DNA of 64,000 bases from a virus, in IMG/VR virus record IMGVR_UViG_3300024346_007254, positions 1-64,000 of that record. One strand, given 5' to 3'. The notes beneath the pieces were generated by a model, which was not told the DNA's origin, made no database searches, and saw only the letters and a list, made by a program, of their open reading frames with translations. Position numbers and translations under genes: made by a program. Of the stretch, positions 7 to 47,653 are shown piece by piece. Positions within the stretch are counted from its first letter, which is position 1, and each line of letters begins with the position of its first letter.

Positions 7-1119
7 TTAAACTTTCCTTTTAGGTATCTTACTGTCGGCGCTGCTTACACAACTGTCTGTAATACAGGGCATCGGTTTGTCAAACAGCTTAAACCCTGTT
101 TCTATATTACCAAGAGGCACATCGTGGCATGAATAGGAACGTTTGATACTTCCGTCAGGCTCGCGTATAATAATTCCTTGATATCCGGCATTACAACTCC
201 ATCCTTTAAATTTGTTAAAGTTAAAGGCATTAAAGCGCTCGGCCTGATCCATGAACCATTTCTTGCCGTTTTTGTCTTCAAACTCAACTTGCATATGCCA
301 TGGAACACTTGCATCTAGTTTGCCATTAATGCCTTTTGGTATTTCAAATGTAGGCTTTGGACGGTCTGCCCATTTGCGTTTGCTTTCTGTGTAAGCACGT
401 TGTGGCATGCCGTTGTGCAGTCTCTTAAGCATATCGTCTGTATACCCGTCAACGACGCGGCTAGCGGTAGGGTCTGACTGTGGCTTGAGTGTTACGTTAA
501 TATTTTGCTCATGAAAGAACAGTGCGTTAGACCAGTCTTCTTCAAAGTGCTCCGGACGCATTACCATGTTGATTGTAACTTGCACATCGTACTCTTGACA
601 GAAAACTAGCTTGTCTGCAAATTCTTGCATCTTCTCTGTTGTGTTAAGATGCTCTGTGTGTAAGCTTGCTGTAATGCTGGCGCGGTGGAATGGCTTTGCA
701 TACTCTACATATTCTTCAAACCACTTCATATTGCGACTGCAATTAGATGTCATGTGTACTGAAGTATAGTTTGTGTTCGGAGCGTCATCTGAAAGGTGTT
801 TCATAATATCCAAGTAGCCTGGATGGAACGTAGGCTCGCCTCCGCTTAGGGAGAAGTGGAAACTGTTAAATCCGTTGCCTCTAGCTTGTCGTTTAATCTC
901 ATCGATTGTCTTAAGGCAGAGTTCAGTCGGTCTGTGATCTTTTCTATCCGACCTTGCATATGGCCAGCAATAACTACACTTATAATTACAAAACCTACCG
1001 AGTAACCAAGACACAGTGAAAATATCTCTGTAGATGAGAGTTCTTTGGCCCACAGACGTGATATCGTCAAACGGAATTTTTGTAAAATCGTAGTTGCTCC
1101 ATTTTAAATCTTCATTCAT
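7..1119 (-). CDS. Radical SAM protein, type A (W-x5-CNxxCxYC core, C-terminal Cys-rich twitch-like domain)
   Basis: WLLGRFCNYKCSYC triad, SGGEPT motif, C-terminal WSCNAG...SC...CITDSC. Confidence 0.9.
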   Translation of the reverse strand: MNEDLKWSNYDFTKIPFDDITSVGQRTLIYRDIFTVSWLLGRFCNYKCSYCWPYARSDRKDHRPTELCLKTIDEIKRQARGNGFNSFHFSLSGGEPTFHPGYLDIMKHLSDDAPNTNYTSVHMTSNCSRNMKWFEEYVEYAKPFHRASITASLHTEHLNTTEKMQEFADKLVFCQEYDVQVTINMVMRPEHFEEDWSNALFFHEQNINVTLKPQSDPTASRVVDGYTDDMLKRLHNGMPQRAYTESKRKWADRPKPTFEIPKGINGKLDASVPWHMQVEFEDKNGKKWFMDQAERFNAFNFNKFKGWSCNAGYQGIIIREPDGSIKRSYSCHDVPLGNIETGFKLFDKPMPCITDSCVSSADSKIPKRKV

Positions 1120-1124
1120 AATTT

Positions 1125-1153
1125 ATTATAGCATCCAATTTATTCTTTGTCAA
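1125..1153 (-). promoter_or_regulatory. Sigma70-type promoter with extended -10
   Basis: Minus strand TTGACA (1153-1148), 17-nt spacer ending TGC, TATAAT (1130-1125), then 5 nt to the ATG at 1119. An ATTAAATA late-like motif also lies at 1168-1161. Confidence 0.8.
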
Positions 1154-1171
1154 GTATAGGTATTTAATAGA

Positions 1172-2113
1172 CTATAGTTCTTCTTTTGAAAAATGATCTC
1201 TTTTATTTTCTTTACAAGTGTTTAAACATTTTGGAATTTTATTATCACCAGTCCAGGATTCAATTATATCCGTAAACACTTTTCCTTTGAGTGCTTCTTT
1301 AATACTTACGTTTTCTAGATTAATGTCGTTCATGTAGTCGTGCTCAACTAGTATTTCTTCAAAGCGATCTTTAACTTCACCTGTTACAGAAAATTCTAGC
1401 ATCTTGCTGTTTAGATGACAGCACGGAATAACGTTACCCATATGATTTACAAAGATTCTTTTTTGATTTGAATACTTACAACTTATACAAGGCGACTCGT
1501 CTACTTCTTTTTTCTTGTGCTTCACTCCATTTTTATCATCGCGGTGACTTATGATAGTTTTAAAATCTTTAAACCCTTCAGCTTTAGCTTTTGCTTTTGC
1601 TTCTTCTAGTTGGTGCTCGTTATGTTCAAACACAATAAACTGCCAATTAGATTTGCCGCCCGCTGCATTAAATGCGCGGTAGTTTTTTTCTACCTTTTCA
1701 AAATTAGAACCTTCTCTATAAATTTCACTTGTGCTATCGCTACCGTCAATGCCCCATGTTACTTTGTGGCTTGCAGGCATATGAGTAGCTAACTTTGCCC
1801 ACCATGCTTCGGTTCGCAAACTCCCATTAGTAGCAACGTTTATATGGGCATTCCAATCTGCAAAATGATCAATTATATCAAAAAAGTCAGGATGGGTAGT
1901 AGGCTCGTCGACACTGCCGCAAAAGTTGATAATTTTTATATTAGGAAAGTCTTCTTTAATAAATCTTTTTCTAATAGTATCGATTCCAATATAATGTTTG
2001 TTTAAAATCTTATCAGCTTGTTTTGATATAACTCTAAAACACCCCTTGCAACTTATGTTACAAAAGCTAGTAAGTTCTATATCAATCCATTCTATTGTGT
2101 CAGTTGACCACAT
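1172..2113 (-). CDS. Radical SAM protein, type B (CG-x2-(G/D)(D/E)P, C-terminal twitch/SPASM-like)
   Basis: IELTSFCNISCKGC, FCGSVDEP, TNGS, IDG, C-terminal IPCC...CLNTC. Confidence 0.9.
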   Translation of the reverse strand: MWSTDTIEWIDIELTSFCNISCKGCFRVISKQADKILNKHYIGIDTIRKRFIKEDFPNIKIINFCGSVDEPTTHPDFFDIIDHFADWNAHINVATNGSLRTEAWWAKLATHMPASHKVTWGIDGSDSTSEIYREGSNFEKVEKNYRAFNAAGGKSNWQFIVFEHNEHQLEEAKAKAKAEGFKDFKTIISHRDDKNGVKHKKKEVDESPCISCKYSNQKRIFVNHMGNVIPCCHLNSKMLEFSVTGEVKDRFEEILVEHDYMNDINLENVSIKEALKGKVFTDIIESWTGDNKIPKCLNTCKENKRDHFSKEEL

Positions 2114-3450
2114 TATGTTATCCTCGTTTCTAAATATTTAATAATATCGGGATGCAAGTATTCGTGATAATCTTGATCCCTTGATTTATCAAATACTGTA
2201 ATTTCCCTCAACATGTTTTGTCTATGTTCGTCAGTTACATCAAAGTCTAAATTTTCTTCTAAGTATTTAATTACATGCTTCACCATAGTTGAGCCGTGGT
2301 CAGCTGCAAGAGTTTGAAAATTTTTGATCAGGTCGAGCTTTATATCTTTTGTTAAGAATTTAACATTAATAAATTTTTCATCTGGCCAAATCAAGTCTAC
2401 AAAAAAGCTACAATTCTCTACTGTATCATTATTTAAAATACGTTCTTTGTACCATTTATAAAGATCGGGAATGTAGTGTGCGTTGAGCGCACTAAGCACT
2501 ATAGTTGGAAATAAATTTAACTTACGATCGTTTTCGTCAAACTTTGCAATTAGGTTATCTAAACTTTTTACAAGACTGTTCCATTTCATTGGGTAACGAA
2601 TATATTCGTAATTTTTTCCAACACTGTCGATGCTTAGATTTAGAGACGGCGCGCCTCTAAATTTTAACATTTTTTTAACTAATTGATTATTAAATTTTGT
2701 TGCATTTGTATGAAAACTTAAATGTATATTTTTGGCAGCGTCAACTTCTATAGCTTTATCTAAAAACTGTAAAAAAGGTTGAACAATTGTAGGTTCACCA
2801 CCAGTTGCTTTAATTTCTCGCAAGTTGTGTATGTTATCTAAAATATTTTGCCATTGCTCGTTACCGTTCCAAAAATGTGACTTGTTGTGAGAATTTGGAC
2901 CTGTATTATGTAAGAAGGTAGGAATATTAGTTAATTGCTTATCAGATTTCCATTCAAACCCACTGATGCCATTAGTGTCTAGATTGTTTTCAATAAAGTA
3001 ATTATAATCGTGTCTAAGCTTATTACTAAGTCCAGGTTGACACATTCTGCATCTAAGGTTACAATTTTCGCCAAGGCTCAGGTCAACACATTGCATCTTC
3101 GGATTATTAACATCAAACTCATTAGCATCAGGAAGGGTAGAAAAAATCCTATAGCTTGTACTGCCTCTGTCTTCCATTTTCCAACAAGTGTTACAAGCTT
3201 GGGGGCGGTTGCCTGCAAGCATTGATTCTCTTATTGCAGTCATTGCAGGTCCATAGAATATCTCCGTGGGCATAATTTTTTTTTCAGACTTAGCAATAAT
3301 GTCTGCTATATGCAGTGGATCGGGGGTCTCGGGCCTTATTGCATTACAACATGGTGCTGCACTTACAATACCTAAGCCGTCTTTCCACTCCTTTAGTGCC
3401 AATTGACTAAAGGGAAAATAGCAAAACGTATTGTCGGTTTCTGGTTTCAT
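2113..3450 (-). CDS. Radical SAM protein, type C (N-terminal twitch-like Cys domain)
   Basis: N-terminal FCYFPF..PCC..CNTCWKME, then CNLRCRMC, TGGEP, TNAT, YIRYP. Confidence 0.9.
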   Translation of the reverse strand: MKPETDNTFCYFPFSQLALKEWKDGLGIVSAAPCCNAIRPETPDPLHIADIIAKSEKKIMPTEIFYGPAMTAIRESMLAGNRPQACNTCWKMEDRGSTSYRIFSTLPDANEFDVNNPKMQCVDLSLGENCNLRCRMCQPGLSNKLRHDYNYFIENNLDTNGISGFEWKSDKQLTNIPTFLHNTGPNSHNKSHFWNGNEQWQNILDNIHNLREIKATGGEPTIVQPFLQFLDKAIEVDAAKNIHLSFHTNATKFNNQLVKKMLKFRGAPSLNLSIDSVGKNYEYIRYPMKWNSLVKSLDNLIAKFDENDRKLNLFPTIVLSALNAHYIPDLYKWYKERILNNDTVENCSFFVDLIWPDEKFINVKFLTKDIKLDLIKNFQTLAADHGSTMVKHVIKYLEENLDFDVTDEHRQNMLREITVFDKSRDQDYHEYLHPDIIKYLETRIT

Positions 3451-4703
3451 TAATTGTTCTCAGTAGGTATAATCGGAGGAGCCTTTGCTACTTCGTCCAT
3501 ACTGTTTTCAAAAACACTACTATCAATATGATTATAAAGAACATCTTTATAGTTTTCTTTATATGCACTCTTTGGTGCGCAAAGGCCGCAACCACATGTA
3601 GCTTTTGGACAAATAACAGTTGGCATTGTCTTTGACTCAAGGCGTTGTTTTAGATCTGCAATGATTTTATAACCTTCGCTAATCTTTCCAATCGGGCCGC
3701 GTGTTTGATCAAATTTAGCTTGACACGTTTGGTGATGGAATACTTGATCTGTTTGTTGTTCTAAATGCAGGAAGAACCAGTTAACACTGCAATGCCAGCC
3801 TTTAAAGTTTCTAAAGTCAACAAAGGTACTTTTACGATCTTCTCCTTTAGCACTTAGGCACATCTCTCTACTGCCGCAGCACGGTCGTCCAATTGCATAA
3901 CCATCTTTCTTTGGTTTAAGTACAGGAACTGCTTCAGCAACCTTAGTTTCTTCGTTTGTAGGTTCGCCTACAGCACTTAGTTTGTGCGATATTTCTTTTT
4001 CATCATTAAGTTTAGCGTTCTTATACTTCCAGTAGTTTTTCATATAATCAAGTTGTTCTTCAGTATACTGGTGTGCAAAGTCACTAGCACTGCCTGCTTC
4101 TTCTCCAATTACACGCGGTACATACTTTACACCGTTTTCATGCAAAAAATCACATAGCTCTTTGCATTCGTCAAAGTATGCAGCATGAAACATAACATTA
4201 ACACTTACAGTGAAATTATTTGCAGGGCCTTCTTTATGAAACTGCATTATTCTATCTTTAACTTGCTGTTTAAGTTTTTGATTGCTTTCGCTATGATAAC
4301 TAACTGTGGCGTGAGTAAAATGCTTCATTACGTTATCGGCCATCTTCTTGCCCATTGCGCCGTTTGTAGTAAGTGAAAATGTTGCAGTCCACTTGTCACT
4401 ATACCGTTTTTTGTATTCATCTTTAAGATAAATTACAAATGGAACAAAATGAGGGTTAACTGTAGGCTCGCCTCCGGTAAAACTAATAGCGGTATATTTG
4501 TTTTTTCTATATTCCATATATGTATCAATATATTCAAACAAGAAATTTGTGTTAGCTTTTAATTCGTCAAGAGTTGCATGTGGACTAAAGTTATCATGAC
4601 GGTGAACAGGACAATAGCTACAATCATAGTTACATCGTCTTCCAAGATCCCACGACACTTGAAAAACATTTCCAGTAAGCAAGTCTACTGTATCAAAACT
4701 CAT
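3450..4703 (-). CDS. Radical SAM protein, type A with extended Cys-rich C-terminus
   Basis: WDLGRRCNYDCSYC, TGGEPT, PCCG..C, HHQTC, CPKATCGCGLC. Start moved to 4703 because of the ATGA overlap with the upstream stop at 4700-4702. Confidence 0.9.
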   Translation of the reverse strand: MSFDTVDLLTGNVFQVSWDLGRRCNYDCSYCPVHRHDNFSPHATLDELKANTNFLFEYIDTYMEYRKNKYTAISFTGGEPTVNPHFVPFVIYLKDEYKKRYSDKWTATFSLTTNGAMGKKMADNVMKHFTHATVSYHSESNQKLKQQVKDRIMQFHKEGPANNFTVSVNVMFHAAYFDECKELCDFLHENGVKYVPRVIGEEAGSASDFAHQYTEEQLDYMKNYWKYKNAKLNDEKEISHKLSAVGEPTNEETKVAEAVPVLKPKKDGYAIGRPCCGSREMCLSAKGEDRKSTFVDFRNFKGWHCSVNWFFLHLEQQTDQVFHHQTCQAKFDQTRGPIGKISEGYKIIADLKQRLESKTMPTVICPKATCGCGLCAPKSAYKENYKDVLYNHIDSSVFENSMDEVAKAPPIIPTENN

Positions 4704-5482
4704 AAAGAATAACCCTTCTTTGCTGCTTCTTCCATTGCCCATTTTCGTTCAGCACACCAAAAACAATTGTTACATACTTCGAGAGGAATACCGTGTTCGT
4801 ATGTGTCCCACGTTATTCCTTCAAATTGGCCTTCGCAACTTCTTGTAGTAGTTAACAAATCTTGCCACCCATTAACAAAATATTGTTCTATAACCCAATC
4901 TTTTTCAACATACTTAAACGGGTGTAGCTGACTCCATTCTTGTTGTTCTGCTGTGGCGTCCTCTATAGATACCTTTCTATCGTGCGGGGCTTTATTCAGC
5001 TTAACATTGGGGTTTTTAGTAACACAATTGTATATGCGAGAAAGATTGTGTCGTTTAAATGCATATTGATTATATGCACTTACCACCATCCTGTCGCCGG
5101 AAAACGCAGGATCTGCTGGGTTTTTATAAGGTCCGGACTCTTCAAATTGAGGTGGAATAAATCCTTCAATGCGTTCGACAATTACATCTGGAAACATTTT
5201 CTTTAATTTATTGTATACATCAATGCTGATGTATCCAGCCCAAGGCCTATCGGTGTAAACACGAACAAACGAAATTATCTTTATCTTTGTCTTGTATCCA
5301 TTTTCTTGAATGTACTTTGCTAACAGTGACGTAAATAACGCACTGTCGGCACCGCCACTTACATTTATTCCAACATAGTCCCAATTCGGATCGAAGCGTA
5401 CAGGCAAGCCATTTAGCTCATGTAACTTATCACTTATGCCAAGTGAATAGAATTTTTTTTGTATTTCATCAAGATTTGTCAT
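4700..5482 (-). CDS. QueC-like PP-loop ATPase (adenine nucleotide alpha-hydrolase) with C-terminal Zn-binding motif
   Basis: NVSGGADSA PP-loop, TRSCEG...CNNCFWCAER (C...CxxCxxC as in QueC). Confidence 0.8.
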   Translation of the reverse strand: MTNLDEIQKKFYSLGISDKLHELNGLPVRFDPNWDYVGINVSGGADSALFTSLLAKYIQENGYKTKIKIISFVRVYTDRPWAGYISIDVYNKLKKMFPDVIVERIEGFIPPQFEESGPYKNPADPAFSGDRMVVSAYNQYAFKRHNLSRIYNCVTKNPNVKLNKAPHDRKVSIEDATAEQQEWSQLHPFKYVEKDWVIEQYFVNGWQDLLTTTRSCEGQFEGITWDTYEHGIPLEVCNNCFWCAERKWAMEEAAKKGYSL

Positions 5483-6893
5483 CTAGAGATTCCTTATTAA
5501 ATATATCTTTCATTTCAGGAAACGTTTCAGCAAATGTTATCCCACGTTGTTGATCACATAATCCAAGAAACTCTTTCATTTCGGGTAGACGTTGACTCCA
5601 ATCTTCCGAATCCATAAAGCTAAGTATTCCATCAAGACGTTTGATTCCGTATTCTGCTTCTTGCCATGTTTCATATGTTATTTTTCCTTTGTGCCACTCC
5701 GGTATACCTAGTTCCCAGTTTTCTTCCCACCACGGATACCATGCTTCGTACTTATCTCTGCATTCTTTCTTAAACCAAGTAGGTAGAGCTTTTACATTTA
5801 GGTGTGCCGGCCAGTATACAAAGTGCTGACTTATGCCGCCAGCGCCAAATGGCCACATGTTAACCTTTTTAAAACCTTGCTCAAGTTTCCATTGTATAAA
5901 ATCTGGCAAGTAATATACATTAAGGGCTTGTACTGCGCAAGCAATAGTAACCTCGACATTATCACTTGTTTCGTTATCAAGTATGTGGAACACTTCTTCT
6001 TGACGTGTCCACTTACTAGGATAGCGAATATAATCATTCATCTCTTTAATGCTGTCTATCGAATAGTGAAAACGCACCAGCTTAAATTCTTTCCATAAAT
6101 CAAATAGGTCCTCTCTCCATTCAACTCCATTTGAGTTATAACGAAGTTCAAGGTCTTTTGCATAACCCATTTTAATTGCGTGTTCAAGAATTTCATAATG
6201 TTCCTCAATAATAAGACTTTCGCCGCCTGCAAAATAGATTTGTTGCATAGTCGGCATTTGCTCATAAAACTGTTTCCAGAATGTAGGATTTTGTTTGTGC
6301 CAGTTGTAACTACTGCCGTTAGTACTACCTTTGTCTTCCCACTGCATAATCTCTTTAAGTGATTCGTTTTTAACTGCTGGGAAGATAGCTTTGTAGTCTT
6401 TAATCCAGCCACTGCTATCATGCGGGCTGCACATTACACAAGCAAGCTGACACTTTGTTCCAAAACGCAAATCAATGTATGCTAGGTTTGGGGGCACTTC
6501 GCCATCTTCTTTGGTATCGGCTAGAATCTTTTCAAGGTCTACACGCTGGCTCCAATAGTGTGTTTCCCACTGTCGCTTACTACGATGGCCTGCTGCTTCC
6601 TCTTTGTAGCACTTTAAACAGCTAGGTGGTTTTTCTCCGTTAAGCATTTGCTTTCGGACGTTCTTCATGTAGTTGCTATTCCATGCTGTTTCAAAGTCAC
6701 TTACATTTAGATTGTTAGGCTTGCCATCATCTGTTTTAAGAATGCCTACTTGTCCGCCATGTTCTTTGTCATTTGTTGGGCCAACGCTACTTGCGTTAGC
6801 TGTACAACAAACTCTCATGCTGCCGTCTGGGCGTGTACTTAGGTGTACCCACGGCAGGAGGCAAAACGTCTCGCTCGGTAATTTATCGGTCAT
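5469..6893 (-). CDS. Radical SAM protein, type C
   Basis: FCLLPWVHL..VCC..CLKCYKEE, DLRFGTKCQLACVMC, AGGES. Confidence 0.9.
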   Translation of the reverse strand: MTDKLPSETFCLLPWVHLSTRPDGSMRVCCTANASSVGPTNDKEHGGQVGILKTDDGKPNNLNVSDFETAWNSNYMKNVRKQMLNGEKPPSCLKCYKEEAAGHRSKRQWETHYWSQRVDLEKILADTKEDGEVPPNLAYIDLRFGTKCQLACVMCSPHDSSGWIKDYKAIFPAVKNESLKEIMQWEDKGSTNGSSYNWHKQNPTFWKQFYEQMPTMQQIYFAGGESLIIEEHYEILEHAIKMGYAKDLELRYNSNGVEWREDLFDLWKEFKLVRFHYSIDSIKEMNDYIRYPSKWTRQEEVFHILDNETSDNVEVTIACAVQALNVYYLPDFIQWKLEQGFKKVNMWPFGAGGISQHFVYWPAHLNVKALPTWFKKECRDKYEAWYPWWEENWELGIPEWHKGKITYETWQEAEYGIKRLDGILSFMDSEDWSQRLPEMKEFLGLCDQQRGITFAETFPEMKDIFNKESLDDKS

Positions 6894-7972
6894 TAGTTTC
6901 CTTCAATCTTAATTTCGTTATGGTAAGCTTTGTTCATTCCGCATGTACGAACACAACGAGTTAGGTGCAAGCTGTTTTTAGGATCCCAACTTAATTCTAA
7001 CAGTTCAGTATACCACGGATGTGATAGAATTTCTTCTACAGTGTGATATCTAAGGGAATTCCACGTATCACTAAAAATTGCCAACTTGTCGACTATTTTG
7101 TCTCCATTTTTAATAAATTCTGTCCACAAAAAACAGCATGGCCAAACTTTTAAATCTGCAGATATAAAAATCTCTCCCTCATGGATGTACTTACACGTTA
7201 TACTTTTAATTATAGCATCTTTTTCGTTTTTGTCAATTTCTTTGTTTGAGGAATAATCCTCAATGAATTTATCAAGCTTTTGTACTTGAGCCACTTTACT
7301 GTGTTCTTTAGCACCCGTTGTTGTAACTATTTTTTCTTCTTTGACTATTTTACCATTTTGTTTTTTAGTAATTTGCGATAGCCAATCCTGATAGCTGTTG
7401 CGCATACCAGTACGAGTGGCAAATTTTAATCCTAGCTCTGCGGCGTGCTGGCGAGCAGTGTCTAACTCGTATTCATTATGGTCAAACACAATAAAGATCC
7501 ATGTGCCCGTTGCAATGCCTTCGCCGCCTGCCATGTATGCTTTTACGTTACGCTCAATAACTGAGAATTTTGTATTAACTCTGTATATGTGATTTGTTTC
7601 AGCATGACCATCAATACAAAAGACAACGTCTACATTTTGTGTTTCTTTGCCAACTTTGCCTAATTCTCGCCACCATTCTTCTGTACGGATGCCGCCGTTT
7701 GTGCTTAATTGACAACGGCCACCGTTTGTGGCCAAATATCTAACCATGTCCAGACATTCTACGTTTGCAGCCGGGTCGCCTAATACTCCGCAAAACTTAA
7801 ACGATTTTCCAGTAATGTGTTCTTTTTTAGGAAAGGCTGACTGCAAGTCTTTAAATGTAAAACTTTGAATCTTGTATTCGCCGAGCCGTTGTGTCCTTAG
7901 ACAGCCCGGGCACGCCGCATTACAATCCGACGTGATTTCGAGTTCAATTTTTTTAAGGAAATCAACTGACAT
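6893..7972 (-). CDS. Radical SAM protein, type B
   Basis: LEITSDCNAACPGC, FCGVLGDP, IDG, WPCC, CVRTC. Confidence 0.9.
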   Translation of the reverse strand: MSVDFLKKIELEITSDCNAACPGCLRTQRLGEYKIQSFTFKDLQSAFPKKEHITGKSFKFCGVLGDPAANVECLDMVRYLATNGGRCQLSTNGGIRTEEWWRELGKVGKETQNVDVVFCIDGHAETNHIYRVNTKFSVIERNVKAYMAGGEGIATGTWIFIVFDHNEYELDTARQHAAELGLKFATRTGMRNSYQDWLSQITKKQNGKIVKEEKIVTTTGAKEHSKVAQVQKLDKFIEDYSSNKEIDKNEKDAIIKSITCKYIHEGEIFISADLKVWPCCFLWTEFIKNGDKIVDKLAIFSDTWNSLRYHTVEEILSHPWYTELLELSWDPKNSLHLTRCVRTCGMNKAYHNEIKIEGN

Positions 7973-7990
7973 TGTGTACGTACTTTACTC

Positions 7991-8008
7991 TCATAAATAT
8001 ATTTATGA
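7991..8008. promoter_or_regulatory. Perfect 18-bp palindrome containing two opposed late-promoter-like motifs (CATAAATA on each strand)
   Basis: TCATAAATATATTTATGA lies between divergent genes starting at 7972 (-) and 8005 (+). It resembles the T4 late promoter TATAAATA. Confidence 0.65.
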
Positions 8009-16077: not shown

Positions 16078-16084
16078 ATACTTA

Positions 16085-33486: not shown

Positions 33487-33494
33487 TGTATACC

Positions 33495-33502: not shown

Positions 33503-33506
33503 TGTT

Positions 33507-34856: not shown

Positions 34857-34863
34857 ATCATTC

Positions 34864-36645: not shown

Positions 36646-36655
36646 TTTAGTTCCT

Positions 36656-36676
36656 AATAAATATATTGTATTTACA
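36656..36676. promoter_or_regulatory. Opposed late-promoter-like motifs serving divergent genes
   Basis: AATAAATA on plus (36656-36663) and TGTAAATA on minus (36676-36669), in the gap between divergent genes. Confidence 0.5.
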
Positions 36677-39690: not shown

Positions 39691-40273
39691 TTATTAATTT
39701 AAACAATCTTTTTGCAAATATATCATGGGTTCTTTTATTAGGGTGTCCATCTTTTAACGCTTTGTAATAACCAAATTTTTTAAAAACAATATCTATATTT
39801 ACATTGTTCCAGCTTGGTGGATTTTTAATTATTAATTTATTATATGTATGCAAACTATTAATTGTTTGGCTAACTCTATTTTTTAAAAAGTAATTAGCTA
39901 AGTTAGCATTCATAAAAAAATCTAAACAATCATCGTAGTCGTTTTGATACTTAGCAAAAAACCTCTGCCATACTTCTTCTTCTTGCCAGGAAGCTAGTTG
40001 TTCCCAATAGCGTCCATTCCAGACTCCTCTACGAGAAGGAATGGACCAATTTATTACAACAATGTCTGTTTTTCTAAACTCTGTTTCAAGTACTGTTGCT
40101 GTTATTTGCTTAGAAGATGCTCCGGTATCGGACCTATTAAGTTCTTCTCTTCCAAGCATATTTGATAACGTAGTAGAGAATCCAAGCTTGCTAGGAGGAT
40201 CATTGACTGTTAAGCAGTCATCTAATTCTAATCCATATACGTGACTGCATCCAAATGTAACTAATCTAGGCAT
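39683..40273 (-). CDS. SGNH-like hydrolase or acyltransferase (G-C-S)
   Basis: TFGCSHVYG, N.S.TGAS, NWS..SR, DGHP. Confidence 0.7.
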   Translation of the reverse strand: MPRLVTFGCSHVYGLELDDCLTVNDPPSKLGFSTTLSNMLGREELNRSDTGASSKQITATVLETEFRKTDIVVINWSIPSRRGVWNGRYWEQLASWQEEEVWQRFFAKYQNDYDDCLDFFMNANLANYFLKNRVSQTINSLHTYNKLIIKNPPSWNNVNIDIVFKKFGYYKALKDGHPNKRTHDIFAKRLFKLINE

Positions 40274-41549
40274 ATTTGCGTAACCAAGTCATTTCCGGAT
40301 AAACGGACCAAAAGTCCTCTTTACGATGAATGTCCAATCTATGATTATTATCAAAAAACTGCTTGAGTTTGGCCTCATCTAATTTGCCAGTATTCATAAA
40401 TTGTATAACGCTATCAATTTTTCCAATTACATCCTTAATTACTTCCGGACGTGCTTCTGCACGTTCTTTAATCTTGTCAAATGCCCATGCTTTATAATCG
40501 ATATATTTTGATCTTAATTCTATTTTAATATCTTCCGGTATGTTATCAATTCGCATAAAATCAGGATCGGTAAGGATATTCAGTCTACAATTTTCAATAT
40601 CTACTAACCCACGTTCTACCCAATCCATATGAAAATCTGGCCAATTCCATGCATTGTATAAACTAATAGTCGGCGTTAATTCAAAGTGTACATGAGGCAC
40701 TTTCTCAAGCATTTCAATTCTGTTACGTTCAATTTGATTCCAGTCGGTGCCATTCCTGCTGTATTCAGCTCTTGTTCCATTGGAATCAAGACTACCGCTA
40801 ACTTGGATATCTTCAAATTCTTTCCAGTATTCGATTATTGACTTTTGTTTGTATTTAAAGTTACTAAAATTAGTAGTGTAACGTAACCGCACATCTTTTT
40901 TACCAGTTTCAATCCAATAATCAAGTATTTTGTAATGCTCGTCTGTAATAAGTGCTTCGCCGCCTGCCCAATACACTTCTTCGACATCGGGCAAATATTT
41001 TTGCAGATCTTCCCAAAAGTTGTTTTCTTTTGCAATATTAACTACAATCTTGCCATCGTTTTTTAACATACGAGCAAGTTCGTGTTCGCCGTACAAGTCT
41101 TTAAATTCTTTAGCATGTTGACTGCTAAGTTCTGGACCACAAGTATGACATTTCATGTTGCAAATATTTGAGAAGCGTATGTCTAAGTATGCCATGCGCA
41201 AATTATCAATACTTCCGTCGGCATTTGTATTTTCAACTAGATCAAAGTGTTTGTCACCAAACCATTGATTATGATTCTTGCGCAACGTCCAAGTATTTGA
41301 TCGATTTTCTAGTTCGTAGCAACGTTTGCATACATCACGCTTTTCTCCGTTAAGCATTGCTAGTCGAAGATCCTTGTATTCGTCACTATTCCATACTTCA
41401 GCAATGCTTTTATTTTTTACATTGCCAAACGGCTTATCCGAATCAGCAATACAACAAGGCATTGCATTGCCGTTTGGCCAAACGTGCATGTGAACCCACG
41501 GTAAAATGCAGAATGCTTTATTCTGTGTTAATAACTCTTTTTTATCCAT
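40266..41549 (-). CDS. Radical SAM protein, type C
   Basis: FCILPWVH..PCC..CKRCYELE, DIRFSNICNMKCHTC, AGGEA. Confidence 0.9.
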   Translation of the reverse strand: MDKKELLTQNKAFCILPWVHMHVWPNGNAMPCCIADSDKPFGNVKNKSIAEVWNSDEYKDLRLAMLNGEKRDVCKRCYELENRSNTWTLRKNHNQWFGDKHFDLVENTNADGSIDNLRMAYLDIRFSNICNMKCHTCGPELSSQHAKEFKDLYGEHELARMLKNDGKIVVNIAKENNFWEDLQKYLPDVEEVYWAGGEALITDEHYKILDYWIETGKKDVRLRYTTNFSNFKYKQKSIIEYWKEFEDIQVSGSLDSNGTRAEYSRNGTDWNQIERNRIEMLEKVPHVHFELTPTISLYNAWNWPDFHMDWVERGLVDIENCRLNILTDPDFMRIDNIPEDIKIELRSKYIDYKAWAFDKIKERAEARPEVIKDVIGKIDSVIQFMNTGKLDEAKLKQFFDNNHRLDIHRKEDFWSVYPEMTWLRKYA

Positions 41550-42768
41550 TTAACATTACAGCCAATTCAGGAAATACTTTAGCGAAATCTTCGTTGCGTA
41601 TTTTATCTCTTCGGTGCGTATGATGCAAAAATTGCTCTTTTTGGTCATGCCATTGATCTTGCTGGGTAGTAAAAGTTATTGCATCGCGTACATGCATAGC
41701 TTGATACCAATCGTGCTCAATCATATAACTGTGAAGGTCGATTAACTTTTCCGTACCTATAACTTTTAAATGTGTTGGTAGTATTGTTGAAGCATAGTAT
41801 TCCGGAGTCAACGCTCTATAGATACTTATCATGTCCTTTTTTCGTAGTAAGTCTTTATCCATCATGTACTGGAAAAAGTCCGAAAGTGTAACATAATTAA
41901 AAACACTCAAAACTGTGTTATATTGGTAGTCAATGTAATCCAGGTCGCGTATGCTTTTTAGATTGCTTTCAACAACACCCCAATCAGTGCCGTGCCTTAT
42001 GTATTCGGCGCGTTCGCCGTAATGATCAATGCTTGCACTAATTTCAACACGCTTAAATCTGCTCCACAAATCAAGTATGTTGTGCTTCTTGTATTTGAGG
42101 TTGCTCATATTAGTATTGTAGCGCAATGTAATTTCACTGTTTCTACCAGTGCGAATCATTTCTTCTAATATGATATAATGCTCTTCTGTAATAAGAGGTT
42201 CTCCGCCAGCAAAATATGCAAGTTCCATGTGCGGGACTTGCGACTTTATTTCGTCTAATAATTTGCCTGTATTATCTGCATGATTAATAACACGATATCC
42301 GGTTTCAACGTTATCATGTTGCTTCATTTCTTGTGCCCATTGACTGCTAAATTCAGAGCCACAAGTACGACACTTCATATTGCAAATATTACTAAATCTT
42401 ACATCGAAATATTTCATACGGAATTCTGGTAAAGATCCGTCTGTGCTTGTTGGGGTTACAAGTTCATCAAAGTCCTTGCCAAAATGCTCTAGGCTATATT
42501 TTCTAAAACTGAAAGGTGAGCTTTCTTCATGCTTGTAGCAATATGTGCATATGCTGCTTTCTTTGCCAGCAAGCATATCAAGTCGCAATTGCTTCATTTT
42601 GTCATTGTTAAAAATGTCTTTTAAGCTTGCATCCTTAACGTTAGCAAACGGCTCAGTATAATCACTGCTACAACACGGATACACGTTTCCTAGAGGAGTC
42701 ACATTTAAGTGCATCCACGGAAACATGCAAAAAGTTTTACTATCAGTTAGTAATTGTTTTTTATCCAT
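41542..42768 (-). CDS. Radical SAM protein, type C
   Basis: FCMFPWMH..PCC..CTYCYKHE, DVRFSNICNMKCRTC, AGGEP. Tandem paralogue of 40266-41549. Confidence 0.9.
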   Translation of the reverse strand: MDKKQLLTDSKTFCMFPWMHLNVTPLGNVYPCCSSDYTEPFANVKDASLKDIFNNDKMKQLRLDMLAGKESSICTYCYKHEESSPFSFRKYSLEHFGKDFDELVTPTSTDGSLPEFRMKYFDVRFSNICNMKCRTCGSEFSSQWAQEMKQHDNVETGYRVINHADNTGKLLDEIKSQVPHMELAYFAGGEPLITEEHYIILEEMIRTGRNSEITLRYNTNMSNLKYKKHNILDLWSRFKRVEISASIDHYGERAEYIRHGTDWGVVESNLKSIRDLDYIDYQYNTVLSVFNYVTLSDFFQYMMDKDLLRKKDMISIYRALTPEYYASTILPTHLKVIGTEKLIDLHSYMIEHDWYQAMHVRDAITFTTQQDQWHDQKEQFLHHTHRRDKIRNEDFAKVFPELAVMLNG

Positions 42769-44143
42769 TTGCTTCTTTGCGGCAAAGTTCAAAGAATTCT
42801 GTCATTTCTGGAAAAGTAGCTTCGAAATCATTGCCACGTCTGCGATCTTGTTCCTTAAAATAGTTCCAAAAATCTCGGCGGCCTTCCATTAGCTTATTTT
42901 CGTCATATGTTGTGTTCTTCATGTAGTCAACTACACGACGGAATTTTTCATATTCAATTTCAGAAAAATGTACCTTACTCCCTTCCTGCATATTATCTTT
43001 AATAAATTGTAGATGACTTTCCATGTAAGGAATGTAATCTTCTTTTGGAAGAATATTTATGTCGTATTGCAACGGTTCTTTTAAATAAGGTGTATCAAAG
43101 TGAATGCGCTGCCAACGGCCACTATTTATATCGTTGTATTTCTGCCTCCATTCGAGTATCTTTTCAAGAAGTGTTTGGAAAGTTGTTACAGAGAACAGAT
43201 TGAAAGTAATCATAAACGTAACCGGTGCAGTTGTATTTGTTAAAAAGTAGTCAAGATTTCTTTCAAAAACTTCAAGGTCAAGTCCGTCGCGAATATATTC
43301 AGCACGTTCATTCCAAGTATCTACGCTAGTAAACAGTTTGAAGTGCTTAATTTTGTTTTGCGATATAAGACTGTTAACGCCGTCAGTAAACTTTTCTAGC
43401 TGCTTTTCTTTACCACCTAAATTGCTGTTAACATTTAATTCAAGGTTTGGCTTAGGCTCTTTTTCGAGCTCTTCGAACAGTCTATATGTGCTTTTTTGTA
43501 TTGTAGGTTCGCCGCCTGTTACACGCAGGATATTAAGCGTTTTGCTAACTTCCGGCCACCATTTCCACCATGCGCGAACGTAGGGGTTTGTTTCTTCTTC
43601 GTATACTTTAAACCAGTCTACATCACAGCGGTGATTTTTAGACATATCGTACGGTCCGTGCTGACGTATTTCAGCATGATAGCGACTGCTTGCTTTAGGG
43701 TGACAATATCCGCATCTAAAATTACATTCGTTTCCAAAGCTAACTTCAATATACTCAGGGTTCACGTCAAAGTCCCAAGGATTAAATTTAATCTCTTTTA
43801 GGCGATCTTCGCTGTGTATTGAGGCGCTGCGTATGTGCCTGTCACTAACATAGTCTTTGCCCATGTTTTCAATGTTCCAGCAATACTGACAACCTTCAGG
43901 CTGCTTACCTTCTAGCATCATTTTGCGCTCTAGCTTTTTATGCTTGGTATTATGCAACGCGCTCGGATTAGTTAACAGTTCATCAACATCAATTTTATGA
44001 GGTGCTGGATGATAGCAACTATGAGTTTCACCTGTCTGCAAATATATTGTAGTATGATACCATTTAGCATAGCAGAATGTAGGCGAAAAATGCCTATCTG
44101 TAATCTCATTTAGGTATTTGATTTTATCTGTTTGAAATGACAT
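42761..44143 (-). CDS. Radical SAM protein, type C variant (HSCYH replaces the CC motif)
   Basis: FCYAKW..HSCYHP..CQYCWNIE, CNFRCGYC, TGGEP. Confidence 0.9.
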   Translation of the reverse strand: MSFQTDKIKYLNEITDRHFSPTFCYAKWYHTTIYLQTGETHSCYHPAPHKIDVDELLTNPSALHNTKHKKLERKMMLEGKQPEGCQYCWNIENMGKDYVSDRHIRSASIHSEDRLKEIKFNPWDFDVNPEYIEVSFGNECNFRCGYCHPKASSRYHAEIRQHGPYDMSKNHRCDVDWFKVYEEETNPYVRAWWKWWPEVSKTLNILRVTGGEPTIQKSTYRLFEELEKEPKPNLELNVNSNLGGKEKQLEKFTDGVNSLISQNKIKHFKLFTSVDTWNERAEYIRDGLDLEVFERNLDYFLTNTTAPVTFMITFNLFSVTTFQTLLEKILEWRQKYNDINSGRWQRIHFDTPYLKEPLQYDINILPKEDYIPYMESHLQFIKDNMQEGSKVHFSEIEYEKFRRVVDYMKNTTYDENKLMEGRRDFWNYFKEQDRRRGNDFEATFPEMTEFFELCRKEANG

Positions 44144-45072
44144 TAAGTCTCTCTATCAATAAATTGCTGTCCGGCATTTCTTGCAGGATTTTGGTATACT
44201 GTTTTGAAGAACTTGCTTTGACCCGGATCAAGTGGATGTTCTGCAATTGGTAATTCCAGTTCATTAATGATCAATGAGCCCATTTCTTTAATCGAATAAA
44301 GCAAGCTATCTTCAGAAAGCCCACTTACGTTCTCATCCCAATACTTATTCAAATACTTAAAATCTCTTACATTAATAAAGTCCCAGTCTGTGCGCATCGT
44401 CTTGTACAAGCCTTCTCTTGCACCATAGATTGCCCACATGCCGTTTTCAACATCTGCACCTGCCATTAACCAAATATATAACCTGTGCATGTTTTTCCAA
44501 TGATTTTTTTGGAATGCTTCCAGAGATGGTTTTAGGCCTCTGTCAAGTGACATTTTTACACCCTCCCTAAAGCCGGCGCGCCATGCTTGCTGCGGAGTAG
44601 CGTTGTTAAAGATTTCACTATAACAGCTATTCATTTGAATATATTCAATGTCCCAACAAAAATCTACTTGTGCATGTGGATTGTTAGGATCGGCGTTTTC
44701 GTGTGTACGCATATTGAGTACGTATTCTTTTGGCCAACATTTTAAGCCACCGTTACCGTACATTAACCCGTTGATATGATTTTTAGCTGTCCAGCTAATG
44801 ACACATTTTTCAAGCTCTTTGTGTTCATCAAAGTCAAATTCCTTTGTTAAGAATTCTTGCTTGATAATATTGTCGCCGTCGACTGTTATAAATCTATCTG
44901 TCTCTGAAATTCTTGCACATTCTTTGTGGGCAGCATCACTACCTTCAATTCCGTGTACACGTTTTGCCCATGGAATTTTTTTGCAAAGATCTGCATAATT
45001 TTTTTCGGCATTAGGCTCGTCGTAAGACAGGTAGATAATGTCGTAGTCTAATACTCTAAAACTTTTACGCAT
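44143..45072 (-). CDS. GT-A fold glycosyltransferase
   Basis: YDIIYLSYDEPNA..RVHG..AH..TVDGDN (DxD), AWRAGFREGVK. Paralogue of the C-terminal domain of 14779-16077. Confidence 0.7.
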   Translation of the reverse strand: MRKSFRVLDYDIIYLSYDEPNAEKNYADLCKKIPWAKRVHGIEGSDAAHKECARISETDRFITVDGDNIIKQEFLTKEFDFDEHKELEKCVISWTAKNHINGLMYGNGGLKCWPKEYVLNMRTHENADPNNPHAQVDFCWDIEYIQMNSCYSEIFNNATPQQAWRAGFREGVKMSLDRGLKPSLEAFQKNHWKNMHRLYIWLMAGADVENGMWAIYGAREGLYKTMRTDWDFINVRDFKYLNKYWDENVSGLSEDSLLYSIKEMGSLIINELELPIAEHPLDPGQSKFFKTVYQNPARNAGQQFIDRET

Positions 45073-45649
45073 AAATTACCTCATGTTGATAAGACTCAAG
45101 TCTCTTTATAGTATATACGCTTAATGCGTTTGGGTCAAGCTCAATTTCGGTTTCGAAAGGTATTTTTACTGATTTATTTTCAACTAATTTGTTTAATTTT
45201 AAAATAACAACTCTTTCTAAAATATGAGGATCGTTATATTTGGTAATGCTAAACATTAGGGTCTTTTCTAACGATATTGACTTTTCTTTGAAATTTTCTC
45301 TTATACCTTCGTCGAGTATAATTTTCCATTCTTTATTTTCAATATCTTGTATTACCTTTATGTCGGCTCTTTGATCGTCTTTTCTTTTGATATAATGTAT
45401 CTGATTGTTAATGTCAAATACTACATCTTCGTCGTTGTATCTATGTTTAAGAACATACTTTTTGCTAACAGTATCAAAGATAACGTGATAATGGAACATT
45501 TGTTCTTTACCGCTTATCATTCCTGCAACTTCTTCATTGGACACTTGAATATAATTGCCCGTAACTGTGTTTCTGTTACTTACACTTAATATATTACCGT
45601 CGTCATCAAAGTAAACATACCTTCTTTGTGGTATTACTATTGTTTCCAT
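45065..45649 (-). CDS. Hypothetical protein
   Basis: Coupled ORF within the glycosyltransferase operon, no motif recognised. Confidence 0.7.
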   Translation of the reverse strand: METIVIPQRRYVYFDDDGNILSVSNRNTVTGNYIQVSNEEVAGMISGKEQMFHYHVIFDTVSKKYVLKHRYNDEDVVFDINNQIHYIKRKDDQRADIKVIQDIENKEWKIILDEGIRENFKEKSISLEKTLMFSITKYNDPHILERVVILKLNKLVENKSVKIPFETEIELDPNALSVYTIKRLESYQHEVIYA

Positions 45650-46492
45650 TTAAAGTCCTAAATAATTTTCGTATATTTTTATTATTTTGTCGTCGACAAA
45701 GTCTTTTTCAGTATAATGAAAAATTCCACGTTGTTTATAATTGCCAATTTTTAAATTCAAATCTCTGTCAAGATATACACCAACTTTATCCTGCCATCTG
45801 TCAGTTATTAACATCTTCCAATCTTGTGCATGGGTTTTCATATGCACAAAATATGGATAGCTAGTAGGACTAGTTATTTTGTCTTCGCATCCTAAGATTC
45901 TAGTAACAATAGCTGCACTCACATCAACACTGGGATATTTTTGAAAATACTTTCCGCCTGCGAACTGTCCGTAAAACAATTCCCAATTATTCATTACTAT
46001 CTCTAACCATTTGTAAAATTCGTGTGCTTCTTCACTTTTTTCAAAGTAATGAAATCCACTATACAAATCGGGCAAATTATGATTTCTAAACGCTTTTCTA
46101 TAATGCACACTAGTTAGTGGAGTGCCTCGATATGTTATCGTTTTAGTAGTAAAGAATACTTTTTTCTTTTGTAAAAAATCCCACCAATGACTAATGTCGT
46201 CAAGTACTAACATATCGGTATCAAGTACTATAGTTCTATCATACGGAGTAGCATGATAAATCTTCCAACGGTTCTCAACTTTCCAAAAAGAATTTGCTGC
46301 TTGGTCATCCCAAGGAATTGTAACTATGTCATCAAATACTTTTTTTTGTTTTTGAGAAACTGTGTCGTTTGATATTAATGCTATTTTAGAATTAGGATTT
46401 GATGCACGAATACTTAGAGCGCACAAATAAGCTTGCTCAACATAATCGTACTCACCGTTTTGCGCTAGTAAAGTAAAATTAATTGAGGTCAT
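45650..46492 (-). CDS. GT8-like glycosyltransferase
   Basis: YVEQAYLCALSI, TPYDRTIVLDTDML (DxD), FVHMK. Confidence 0.7.
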   Translation of the reverse strand: MTSINFTLLAQNGEYDYVEQAYLCALSIRASNPNSKIALISNDTVSQKQKKVFDDIVTIPWDDQAANSFWKVENRWKIYHATPYDRTIVLDTDMLVLDDISHWWDFLQKKKVFFTTKTITYRGTPLTSVHYRKAFRNHNLPDLYSGFHYFEKSEEAHEFYKWLEIVMNNWELFYGQFAGGKYFQKYPSVDVSAAIVTRILGCEDKITSPTSYPYFVHMKTHAQDWKMLITDRWQDKVGVYLDRDLNLKIGNYKQRGIFHYTEKDFVDDKIIKIYENYLGL

Positions 46493-47312
46493 CAATAATC
46501 CTGTTAAGTCCAAACTTATTCATAATATGTACGTTGCCACTGAATTTTACAGGAAAATGTTCAGAAGTATTTTCTTTTTCAATTAAGAATAAAAAATCTT
46601 CTTCGTCAATTTTTTCAACATGATCTCTATCAGTAATAAAATGTTTCTTGCCCGGCATTGGTTTAATTAGGCCGCCGTCTACGTGCCCGTTCATAATATG
46701 TGCAGCAATACTAAATGCAAAATCATTACGGAAAACTGCGGAGGTTATTTGATACACATTTCGATAATGTTGCCAGTGTTCCTGTATGTGTTTTACTAAG
46801 TCAAAAAAGCATTTGTTAGTATCACTCTTTTTAAAAAAGACACAAGTAGCCCAATAAAATGTCGGTCCGGTTTCACTTATAAATTTAAATTCATCAAGAT
46901 CACGCCATCTAGAAAAATCTGTAGCATCTTTATACATCATTAGTCCGTGTTCTTGCGAAAAGCATTCATTTAACAAATCATTAGAAACTATATAATCTGT
47001 GTCAAGCAACAGCGTTTCAGTGTACGGTGTTAGGTCGTATGCGTTAAAGCGACTAGTATTTTTAAATTCAAGACTCTTTCTAGCATATATACCATCGTTG
47101 TATTTCTTAAATGTGAAATCTTCATCACTAATTTTTAAGATCTTATCAAAAGGATGATTTGGATACTTTTTTGTAAGGTAGGTAGAATTGTCTGTAAGAA
47201 CACTAACCGGAATATCCATATACTTTTTGATTCTGCTTGCAGCAAAAACAGCTTGTTTAATATAATCAATTTGGCTGTTGTTTCTTGCAATTAAAAGGGC
47301 GCCCCTACTCAA
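46479..47312 (-). CDS. GT8-like glycosyltransferase
   Basis: YIKQAVFAA, TPYTETLLLDTDY (DxD), FRNDFAFSIA, VHIMNK. Confidence 0.7.
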   Translation of the reverse strand: MSRGALLIARNNSQIDYIKQAVFAASRIKKYMDIPVSVLTDNSTYLTKKYPNHPFDKILKISDEDFTFKKYNDGIYARKSLEFKNTSRFNAYDLTPYTETLLLDTDYIVSNDLLNECFSQEHGLMMYKDATDFSRWRDLDEFKFISETGPTFYWATCVFFKKSDTNKCFFDLVKHIQEHWQHYRNVYQITSAVFRNDFAFSIAAHIMNGHVDGGLIKPMPGKKHFITDRDHVEKIDEEDFLFLIEKENTSEHFPVKFSGNVHIMNKFGLNRIIDDLN

Positions 47313-47653
47313 CTAACGATACCTTCTACAGTTCGATTAACCTTTAGTTTATTGTATTCAGTGTAATACTTATTTGAAGCTTTATAATAATTGCTTACCA
47401 CATCTTGTGTAAACTTTTCAAGTTCTTCAACAAAAATAGGAATTGAGTTATCATCAACTAACACAGTTTCTGTCTGTTTAAGTTGTAGCAGAGATTGACA
47501 GAAACTAATAAGTCCTTGCGAAACTGTAAACTGGCCGCCATTATAGAAAAACAACAAGTCATTCTCGTATTGTTCTTTTAACACTCTTTTTTGCGACTCA
47601 AGTGTAATCATATAATTACTAAAGTCGAGCGCTGCTTTTAATCTGTCGTCCAT
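47309..47653 (-). CDS. Small helical hypothetical protein (possible tail-fibre assembly chaperone)
   Basis: AGGAG RBS, position immediately after the fibre genes. Function inferred from position only. Confidence 0.5.
   Translation of the reverse strand: MDDRLKAALDFSNYMITLESQKRVLKEQYENDLLFFYNGGQFTVSQGLISFCQSLLQLKQTETVLVDDNSIPIFVEELEKFTQDVVSNYYKASNKYYTEYNKLKVNRTVEGIVS

Follow-up and report, generated by a model that had tools for sequence, protein, structure and literature searches.

The stretch of DNA analysed here (the window) consists of bases 1-64,000 of the 74,882-base linear IMG/VR virus record IMGVR_UViG_3300024346_007254, which has a completeness of 21% (CheckV). Positions 7-47653 of the window carry a dedicated, phage-encoded island of tailoring and sugar-handling genes, 18 of which encode radical S-adenosylmethionine (SAM) proteins. 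This island is joined to the tail-fibre genes, as the first-pass annotation of the sequence had proposed, and the link was kept in all five long relatives. The explanation that we prefer, tentatively and with somewhat less than even confidence, is that the soluble enzymes of a late island linked to the fibres would build and edit a glycan in the cytoplasm and probably decorate the fibres with it.

The region was filled almost without gaps by 53 open reading frames (ORFs; g01-g53), most of which abutted or overlapped their neighbours. The list of ORFs had a threshold of 80 amino acids (aa) and therefore did not include a shorter one of 74 aa (sm74), so that the roughly 55 tightly packed ORFs reported at first came to 53 plus one. 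The island was also said to start right after the last tail gene and to run mostly in the same orientation, which was the case: g53 (47309-47653, minus strand), encoding a small conserved protein, adjoins the last fibre gene, and 40 of the 53 ORFs are on the minus strand, the same as the fibre genes.

Radical SAM enzymes and their families

The radical SAM proteins were counted using the Pfam profile Radical_SAM (PF04055), which matched 18 ORFs, the number given in the first-pass annotation; a six-frame search of the contig recovered 17. Fifteen ORFs scored above the gathering score of 29.5 bits, and the other three were g10 (29.3 bits), g07 (19.3 bits) and g46 (17.7 bits). Since g46 was secured by a score of 385 bits against NF033640 and g07 by paralogy (it is a clear paralogue of g02, g10 and g32, with E values of 1e-33 or better), and since every one of the 18 ORFs has a single copy of the [4Fe-4S]-binding motif CX3CX2C, the number 18 is exact. 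It is the largest radical SAM array noted in a single window.

All-against-all BLASTP divided these proteins into three families and a singleton, and a 4-Cys auxiliary motif was present in each family. Family A (n = 8) consists of g03 (2113-3450), g06 (5469-6893), g34 (29517-30908; 42% identical to g06) and the three tandem genes g46, g47 and g48 (40266-44143) on the minus strand, together with g08 (7972-9282) and g29 (24625-25899) on the plus strand. The members scored against NCBIfam, g03, g06 and g46, matched NF033640, the "twitch domain-containing radical SAM protein", over their full length with 240, 424 and 385 bits, respectively, against a cut-off of 170 bits. All eight members could be aligned with four invariant N-terminal Cys residues, CX3CX2C and GGE, and the auxiliary domain preceded the core, with Pfam SPASM at about residues 11-100 in g06, g08, g29, g34, g46 and g47. 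Family B (n = 4) comprises g02 (1172-2113; C-terminal SPASM/twitch), g07 (6893-7972), g10 (10034-11113) and g32 (27830-28894), all on the minus strand. Family C (n = 5) comprises g01 (7-1119; a plain core plus a C-terminal 4-Cys motif, Pfam 7e-14), g04 (3450-4742) and g44 (38725-39690) on the minus strand and g30 and g31 (25892-27861) on the plus strand. The singleton, g14 (13818-14789, minus strand), has a C-terminal SPASM/twitch (Pfam 8e-13, SPASM 1.4e-6).

The data also showed that the radical SAM paralogues inside the window are only 22-43% identical to one another, while several have phage orthologues at a median identity of 55-87%, so the duplications are old. Full-length alignment of the g46 protein showed 67-88% identity to many proteins of environmental, largely marine origin. 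For g06, 3,838 homologues were found, the best 120 at 78-89% identity and with source labels including Tara and marine metagenomes; because its close homologues number in the thousands and are largely marine, the g06 type ranks with the most common radical SAM chemistries in the sea that are still uncharacterised.

Among enzymes of known reaction, the family A profile matched the twitch domain of BtrN, the butirosin 2-deoxy-scyllo-inosamine dehydrogenase (4m7s/4m7t; 7e-9). The 4-Cys twitch of BtrN aligns with that of family A, and BtrN acts on an aminocyclitol, in the chemical neighbourhood of the DegT and StrB1-type genes of the island. However, the twitch is C-terminal in BtrN and N-terminal in family A, and the cores are not close. 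The core of the family A profile also matched GDGT-MAS, SkfB, MoaA, viperin and BlsE, and g01 matched viperin weakly (5e-3). A search of PDB sequences with g10 gave nothing useful.

Linkage to the tail fibres and conservation

The next gene upstream of the giant ORF g60 encodes a baseplate wedge protein of 1,144 aa, which was about 36% identical to its counterparts in Salicola phage SCTP-2, Agrobacterium phage Atu_ph07 and 350-kb phages of the GAP32/Serratia-BF type. Because of this resemblance, the source of the window is, as judged from its predicted proteins, an uncultured marine jumbo myovirus of the broad Rak2/Atu_ph07-type baseplate group and not a cell; "Rak2-type" is our own label for what we take to be that group. 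The first-pass annotation had considered that the contig might be cellular, or chimeric at about 47.7 kb. Neither was the case: the contig carries a phage baseplate gene, an independent DNA contig bridged 45455-49533 with zero differences, and the synteny around this point was conserved, so that a chimera was ruled out. The G+C content of the window was even (33-41%). A megablast search of 25 kb against the phages in GenBank gave no match. Copies 92% identical were found in Flavobacteriales bins of metagenome-assembled genomes (MAGs), where they sit on short or phage-like contigs, and a Flavobacteriales host was not accepted.

The g06 gene was present at 160 IMG/VR loci, and the conservation of the island was calculated over 80 related loci. 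The conserved set consisted of g01, g02, g04, g06, g07, g10, g12, sm74, g15 and g49. Within it, g06, the most conserved gene of the island, had a median identity of 87% in 80 of 80 loci, g01 had 83% in 41 and g10 had 74% in 74. Core genes were thus conserved at 74-87%, versus 42-48% for the fibres. The genes g11, g13, g14, g16-g27 and others were rare or unique, g11 being absent from every related locus searched.

The gene order was compared with that of a complete relative, G001 (381,886 bases), which runs giant protein, fibres, g53, g52, g51, g50, g49 and g48 homologues and later, toward the other end, g15, g12, sm74, g10, g06 and g01 homologues. Since the G001 island continues for about 3 kb past g01 before the strand switches, the island of the window ends about 3 kb short, which bears out the earlier suspicion that the cluster runs beyond the left edge. 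The far side of the G001 island is a convergent block without assigned function, followed by nucleotide-metabolism genes. A synteny survey for tail linkage had been suggested as a check, and it came out in favour of the link: the order fibres, GT-A-fold glycosyltransferase, radical SAM array, on one strand, was kept in five of five long relatives, with g59 about 10 kb from g49 in all five and g49 identities of 64-79%. The number of Radical_SAM-profile matches per contig ranged from 7 to 21 in the long relatives. In the 31 kb examined of Ralstonia phage RsoM2USA, only a g48-type gene was present and the core was not there.

The six-gene tail-fibre block, g54-g59 (47708-55613, minus strand), has a Ser plus Thr content of 19-26%, and g58 carries a tail-collar domain. 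It is preceded by g60 (55625-64000, minus strand), a structural ORF that continues into L001 (1-5337), reaches the giant length of about 4,570 aa and contains an FG-GAP repeat; its counterpart in cyanomyophages and pelagimyophages may be VrlC. The sequence TAAATA was found upstream of 10 of 60 genes, about eight times the expected number, including g09, g16, g20, g54-g56 and g59, and this box is common to the fibre genes and some island genes. However, the T4 late promoter TATAAATA was not enriched (5 found versus 8.4 expected).

Two observations concern the fibre genes themselves. The products of g56-g58 (49655-54990, minus strand) have an N-terminal domain (about 230 aa, 33-38% identity) in common and differ at their C-termini, a pattern that looks like modular swaps of receptor-binding parts. 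A fibre-like gene, g16 (16134-17279, plus strand), lies inside the enzyme island and encodes a repeat protein that has no Cys and ends in a foldon-like part; its homologue in G001 lies just beyond the island of that phage.

Cellular counterparts were investigated by a scan of cellular genomes with four family A paralogues as the query. The triad g06/g10/g01 (40-66% identity) was found together with a g15-like protein in Bdellovibrionota and Oligoflexia assemblies, and the identities were 54-66% for g01 in Bdellovibrionota, 37-61% for g10 in the Bdellovibrionota-type loci and 40-61% for g15 in cellular modules. In a 1.56-Mb Bdellovibrionales chromosome (OY843585.1), the triad, a GT2 gene and the g15-like gene form a five-gene island flanked by genes for DsbA/VKOR, MlaC, a multicopper oxidase and a VTT-domain (DedA-type) protein. 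A 139.9-kb Bdellovibrionales MAG contig with an ATP-binding cassette (ABC) ATPase, L099, carries g06, g15 and g01 homologues and then a fibre-like gene; at 13054-21274 of this contig the fibre-like gene is followed by homologues of g53, g52, g51 and g49 and by two NF033640 genes, in the phage order. This arrangement in L099 may reflect a cassette common to both or what is left of a prophage. A 1.27-Mb contig labelled Candidatus Parcubacteria carries at least nine NF033640 genes in 30 kb, together with members of families B and C and a short-chain dehydrogenase/reductase (SDR) homologous to g18; because of this array, large radical SAM arrays are also known to occur in cellular assemblies. By Pfam tally, the families most often met with in the 91 neighbours of single-copy NF033640 genes at 16 cellular loci were GT2 (5), PhyH (5), tetratricopeptide repeat (4), Radical_SAM (3) and GDSL (2). 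Haliscomenobacter contigs with arrays lacked an ABC ATPase match, may be misbinned phage and were not counted as cellular.

Sugar-handling enzymes and the predicted product

The glycosyltransferases were analyzed with predicted structures and profiles. The AlphaFold2 (AF2) model of g49 (44143-45072, minus strand), which has a helical C-terminal domain behind its GT-A fold, had a mean confidence (pLDDT) of 87, and Foldseek matched it to ThuS/SunS, WrtF, RmlT, TarP and A64R. Against many GT-A enzymes the VIA Z scores were 8-10, with a root-mean-square deviation of about 3 Å over about 138 residues. In its DxD motif D67 is invariant and D65 is kept in at least 90% of the sequences. Transferase activity is a prediction for g49, since nucleotidyltransferases of the same fold score alike. 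The GT-A profile matched g15 (14779-16113, minus strand), a paralogue of g49, twice, at residues 12-131 and 218-443, so that g15 appears to have two tandem GT-A-like domains. Fusions of the g49 and g15 GT-A domains into single proteins of 843-1,222 aa were seen in many relatives, L041:1300-4968 and L057:4089-7472 among them. The pair g51 and g52 (45650-47312, minus strand) is GT8-like with a DxD motif; g51 had a weak Pfam GT8 match (0.004) and g52 is its paralogue. Two further paralogues, g37 (32425-33486, minus strand) and g42 (36605-38050, plus strand; start uncertain), are putatively GT10-like from motifs in their C-terminal parts. Thus, of the four to six glycosyltransferases counted at first, g49 and g15 were backed by the GT-A fold and g51 and g52 by the weak GT8 match, but g37 and g42 by motifs only.

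The other tailoring enzymes fared in a similar way, and of the five SGNH-like proteins, five 2-oxoglutarate (2OG)-Fe(II) oxygenases and two methyltransferases named in the first-pass annotation only some were supported beyond a motif. The AF2 model of g39 (34083-34856, minus strand) had a pLDDT of 93 and matched only SGNH/GDSL proteins in Foldseek, with a probability of 0.96-1.0, which points to an SGNH-fold hydrolase or acyltransferase; its invariant residues are S10, G38, N41, D180 and H182. The g39 profile linked g45 (39683-40273, minus strand; E 4e-4) and g41 (35857-36885, minus strand; GCSYT at about residue 150, start uncertain; E 6e-3) to this family, but g11 (11114-11935, minus strand; GCSFT) reached only E 0.11, and g11 and g43 (37995-38762, minus strand; DUF6071, Pfam 3.3e-13; GCSHT) share only the block I motif GCSxT with it. 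One cupin/2OG-oxygenase-like family was formed by g17 (17279-17764, plus strand; HxD...H), g24 (21554-22087) and g25 (22080-22622), with a lead toward Asp/Arg- or Asp/Asn-hydroxylases. In contrast, profile searches did not support g20 or g27 (23258-24076, minus strand; HxD motif only) as oxygenases, and g20 had no useful match among PDB sequences. The methyltransferase calls stand as motif calls: g12 (12143-13123, minus strand) has N-terminal helical repeats followed by a putative Rossmann methyltransferase-like domain, and g35 (30909-31514, minus strand) is a paralogue of that domain. Neither g35 nor g42 had a useful match among PDB sequences.

The sugar-nucleotide enzymes were clearer. The g36 protein (31511-32428, minus strand), an extended SDR of the NDP-sugar 4-epimerase-like type, matched Pfam Epimerase at 2.7e-40, in agreement with the epimerase noted at first, and its nearest solved structure was a UDP-glucose 4-epimerase (4zrm, 2.5e-29). 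The genes g18 and g19 (17761-18770, minus strand) encode short SDR-like proteins with TGxxxGxG and YxxxK, motifs found by eye. The amidinotransferase reported earlier was confirmed as g40 (34792-35883, plus strand), which Pfam missed and which matched StrB1 (1bwd) at 2.8e-54 over residues 34-360 of 363 (phmmer against PDB); HsvA, AGAT and SxtG were matched at 1e-25 to 1e-33. The g38 protein (33450-34097, plus strand) matched Pfam DegT at 8.5e-15 (55 bits versus a cut-off of 19.8), as a short member of the DegT/DnrJ/EryC1 family in which the SFxxxK lysine is kept and aligns with that of ColD.

These last genes bring in the reading that the island makes a free small molecule, an aminoglycoside-, aminocyclitol- or nucleoside-like metabolite directed at the host or competitors. 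The StrB1-type g40, the DegT-family g38 and the BtrN-like twitch all suit such a product, as do the weak viperin- and MoaA-like similarities of families A and C and the solubility of all the proteins. However, no cyclitol synthase of the 2-deoxy-scyllo-inosose synthase or inositol-phosphate synthase type was matched by Pfam, there is no exporter or self-resistance gene, and the six glycosyltransferase-like genes and the tight, conserved fibre linkage would be left unexplained. We consider a free metabolite rather unlikely.

The three QueC-like ATPases of the first-pass annotation are indeed three PP-loop paralogues, g05 (4700-5482, minus strand), g09 (9275-10024, minus strand) and g28 (23817-24647, plus strand), although they score below the Pfam cut-off. 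The best QueC match, that of g28, had 18.7 bits (E 1.3e-3; cut-off 22 bits), two of the three matched the PHROG "QueC-like" family at 2e-7, and g05, in which SGGADS and a C-terminal CxxCxxC were seen by eye, is 34-39% identical to g09 and g28. No NCBIfam model matched g05, and in PDB g09 matched only NAD synthetase (0.12). Radical SAM enzymes occur in phage base-modification pathways, and the three QueC-like genes adjoin radical SAM genes, as would be expected if the island served DNA hypermodification, by a modified base such as a 7-deazaguanine derivative or by a DNA-linked glycan. Against this, Pfam and further profile scans matched no FolE, QueD, QueE-type or DpdA/TGT protein in the window, and the island sits in a structural operon. 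G001 has a QueE-like radical SAM gene (phrog_2076, 1e-51) outside its island, at L085 2893-3765 (G001 287893-288765), among exonuclease and ATPase genes in its nucleotide-metabolism region; because of this position, a deazaguanine pathway may be separate from the QueC-like genes of the island. A role in DNA modification is accordingly given very little credence.

The membrane topology of the approximately 54 island proteins was also predicted, and no credible transmembrane segment was found in any of them; the island therefore encodes no flippase, polymerase or undecaprenyl-phosphate (Und-P) transferase. This bears on the view that the island remodels the host surface, altering O-antigen, capsule or another envelope glycan, for example against superinfection. 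Such a role was proposed for GT8-rich pelagimyophage islands with radical SAM cassettes (PMC7029224), the island has the GT8-like g51 and g52, and cellular NF033640 genes often adjoin GT2 genes. Yet the machinery that would be expected, including an ABC exporter, is missing along with any membrane segment, and the island extends the fibre operon, which is an unexpected place for early exclusion genes. Remodelling of the host surface thus seems unlikely.

A direct maturation of protein or peptide was considered next to sm74 (11932-12156, minus strand; TTG start), which lies in the only real gap of the island (11935-12143) and is its sole small conserved ORF. It recurred in 65 of the 80 related loci, where identities were 74-84% and 27 residues were invariant; it has no Cys and belongs to no known family. 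It is translationally coupled, overlapping both neighbours in G001 and, in relatives, immediately preceding a radical SAM gene of family B. In a pathway like those of ribosomally synthesised and post-translationally modified peptides (RiPPs), SPASM/twitch enzymes and glycosyltransferases would act on sm74 or on a fibre protein. The near-invariance and coupling of sm74 fit this, Foldseek placed the peptide S-glycosyltransferases ThuS and SunS, with the same layout of GT-A and helical domains, at the top for g49, and the g24 family carries the hydroxylase lead. However, the Bdellovibrionota modules with the g06/g10/g01 triad gave no match to sm74, no protease or transporter was matched in the window, and the enzyme whose twitch is similar, BtrN, acts on a small molecule. 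Since sm74 has no Cys and the fibre proteins contain 0-1 Cys, except g56 with 6, thioether chemistry is unlikely for most of them. Taken together, a RiPP-like maturation is judged quite improbable.

We return to a glycan that is assembled and edited in the cytoplasm and carried by the fibres. Assembly and editing of a sugar structure in the cytoplasm is preferred because of the genes present, the lack of export machinery, the location where the fibre operon ends, the TAAATA box and a core that combines the triad with glycosyltransferases. The Ser/Thr-rich fibres, the lack of an export or membrane component and the Bdellovibrionales cassette favour a virion or fibre target, and the fibres in particular are favoured because the fibre-plus-enzyme cassette is common to the window and the Bdellovibrionales contig. 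From the gene identities, folds, synteny and common core, we infer the substrate, chemistry and acceptor as follows. Nucleotide-sugar precursors would be altered in the cytoplasm by the 4-epimerase-type SDR g36, by g18 and g19 and by the DegT-type pyridoxal-phosphate (PLP) protein g38; the StrB1-type g40 would add a guanidino group, and the PP-loop ATPases would amidate carboxylates. The GT-A proteins g15 and g49, the GT8-like g51 and g52 and possibly the GT10-like g37 and g42 would assemble an oligosaccharide, which SGNH acyl-esterases or transferases, cupin hydroxylases and the 18 twitch-type radical SAM enzymes would then edit. The radical SAM enzymes would contribute C-H chemistry, for example oxidation, epimerisation, deoxygenation or C-methylation. 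One radical SAM enzyme per family (A g06, B g10, C g01) and the GT-A proteins would form the functional nucleus, the remaining radical SAM genes being old paralogues that differ between relatives, and the most likely acceptor would be the fibre proteins of the phage itself.

Several points weigh against this reading. Radical SAM families A, B and C are each without a known reaction, and about 15 ORFs are without any assignment. No sugar-nucleotidyltransferase was found in the window, and Pfam Glycos_transf_2, PhyH and Lipase_GDSL_2 gave no match even in a one-genome search; because these models fail on the window, several of the enzyme assignments were made from predicted folds or motifs. The aminotransferase named at first stands by the DegT match and the PLP lysine of g38 but not by length: the protein has 215 aa (206 aa in the G001 orthologue) versus about 360-400 aa for the full two-domain enzymes, and contains the large domain only. 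The product is tied to the fibres solely by gene position and the common cassette, and the trio of StrB1-, DegT- and BtrN-like proteins suits a free aminocyclitol-type small molecule equally well. A more far-reaching version, which we regard as doubtful, is that the radical SAM enzymes edit glycans or sugar precursors ending up on the fibres, that swappable cassettes thereby diversify or mask the host-recognition surface, and that predators of the Bdellovibrio type do likewise on fibre-like adhesins.

Related systems and remaining genes

One published parallel is the host recognition cluster (HRC) of pelagimyophages and cyanomyophages. In pelagimyophages this is a variable island linked to the fibre genes that carries GT8 glycosyltransferases and cassettes of radical SAM genes, and it was proposed to modify the host O-chain (Zaragoza-Solas et al. 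2020, PMC7029224). Like the HRC, the island is large and variable, sits on the fibre genes of a marine myovirus and has cassettes that vary between relatives. However, the HRC belongs to T4-like phages of about 150-200 kb and lies between VrlC and the neck gene (gp14), whereas the present island belongs to a jumbo phage, where it forms the end of the fibre operon and borders on non-structural genes in convergent orientation. By this analogy, it can be regarded as the jumbo-phage counterpart of the HRC islands of marine T4-like phages. The HRC report neither dissects the radical SAM genes nor gives them a role (PMC7029224). An exceptional number of radical SAM genes, 12, was also described in the marine T4-like genome TARA_ERS488813_N000010 (Nishimura et al. 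2017, PMC5332604), likewise a marine myovirus and compared here by its description only; there the genes were mentioned only in relation to Fe-S cluster supply. Some published accounts of aquatic jumbo phages make no mention of radical SAM. The statement in the first-pass annotation that no characterised phage pathway has such a composition thus holds as to characterisation, but the kind of island is already in print (PMC7029224, PMC5332604) and the family is catalogued as NF033640. The g03, g06 and g46 proteins agree with that entry over their full length, and all eight family A members have the N-terminal twitch Cys, CX3CX2C and GGE; the entry is a catalogued family without a known reaction, whereas here eight members occur with two further radical SAM families in one island. 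The present analysis adds confirmation of the amidinotransferase, structural models for the SGNH and GT-A folds, the small ORF sm74 and, in the Bdellovibrionales contig, the cassette that combines a fibre-like gene with enzymes.

Glycosylation of virion proteins has been reported for mycobacteriophage capsids and tails (Freeman et al. 2023, cited in PMC12619734). Glycosyltransferase genes adjoin structural genes, as they do in the window, in the mycobacteriophage, chlorovirus A64R and mimivirus fibril systems. A64R and mimivirus R699 were two of the many GT-A enzymes that the g49 model matched. To our knowledge, the enzymes of these systems are limited to glycosyltransferases and those of sugar-nucleotide metabolism, and a radical SAM array is absent; unlike them, the present system is known from its genes alone.

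In both phages and predatory bacteria, three radical SAM families without a known reaction form a triad that moves together with glycosyltransferases, and resolving one triad would open new radical carbohydrate or glycoprotein chemistry. If the product is on the fibres, phages would tune host recognition by enzymatic decoration besides fibre sequence, with a bearing on host-range prediction for uncultured marine phages, and a fibre glycan edited by radical SAM enzymes would be a new kind of virion maturation.

The remaining ORFs of the island received no assignment: these are g13 (13105-13818, minus strand), a variable gene, the variable genes g20-g23 and g26 (within 18767-23268), g33 (28873-29520, minus strand) and g50 (45065-45649, minus strand). 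Small contigs from RNA library X13 covered g44-g48 and the fibre genes at 95% identity or more, and none covered 44.0-47.3 kb, with DNA carry-over possible and no inference drawn on expression. In two listed pairs, g27/g28 (23258-24647) and g41/g42 (35857-38050), the frames overlap on opposite strands by about 260-280 bases; because of these overlaps the true starts are probably internal, and that of g27 is probably later than listed.

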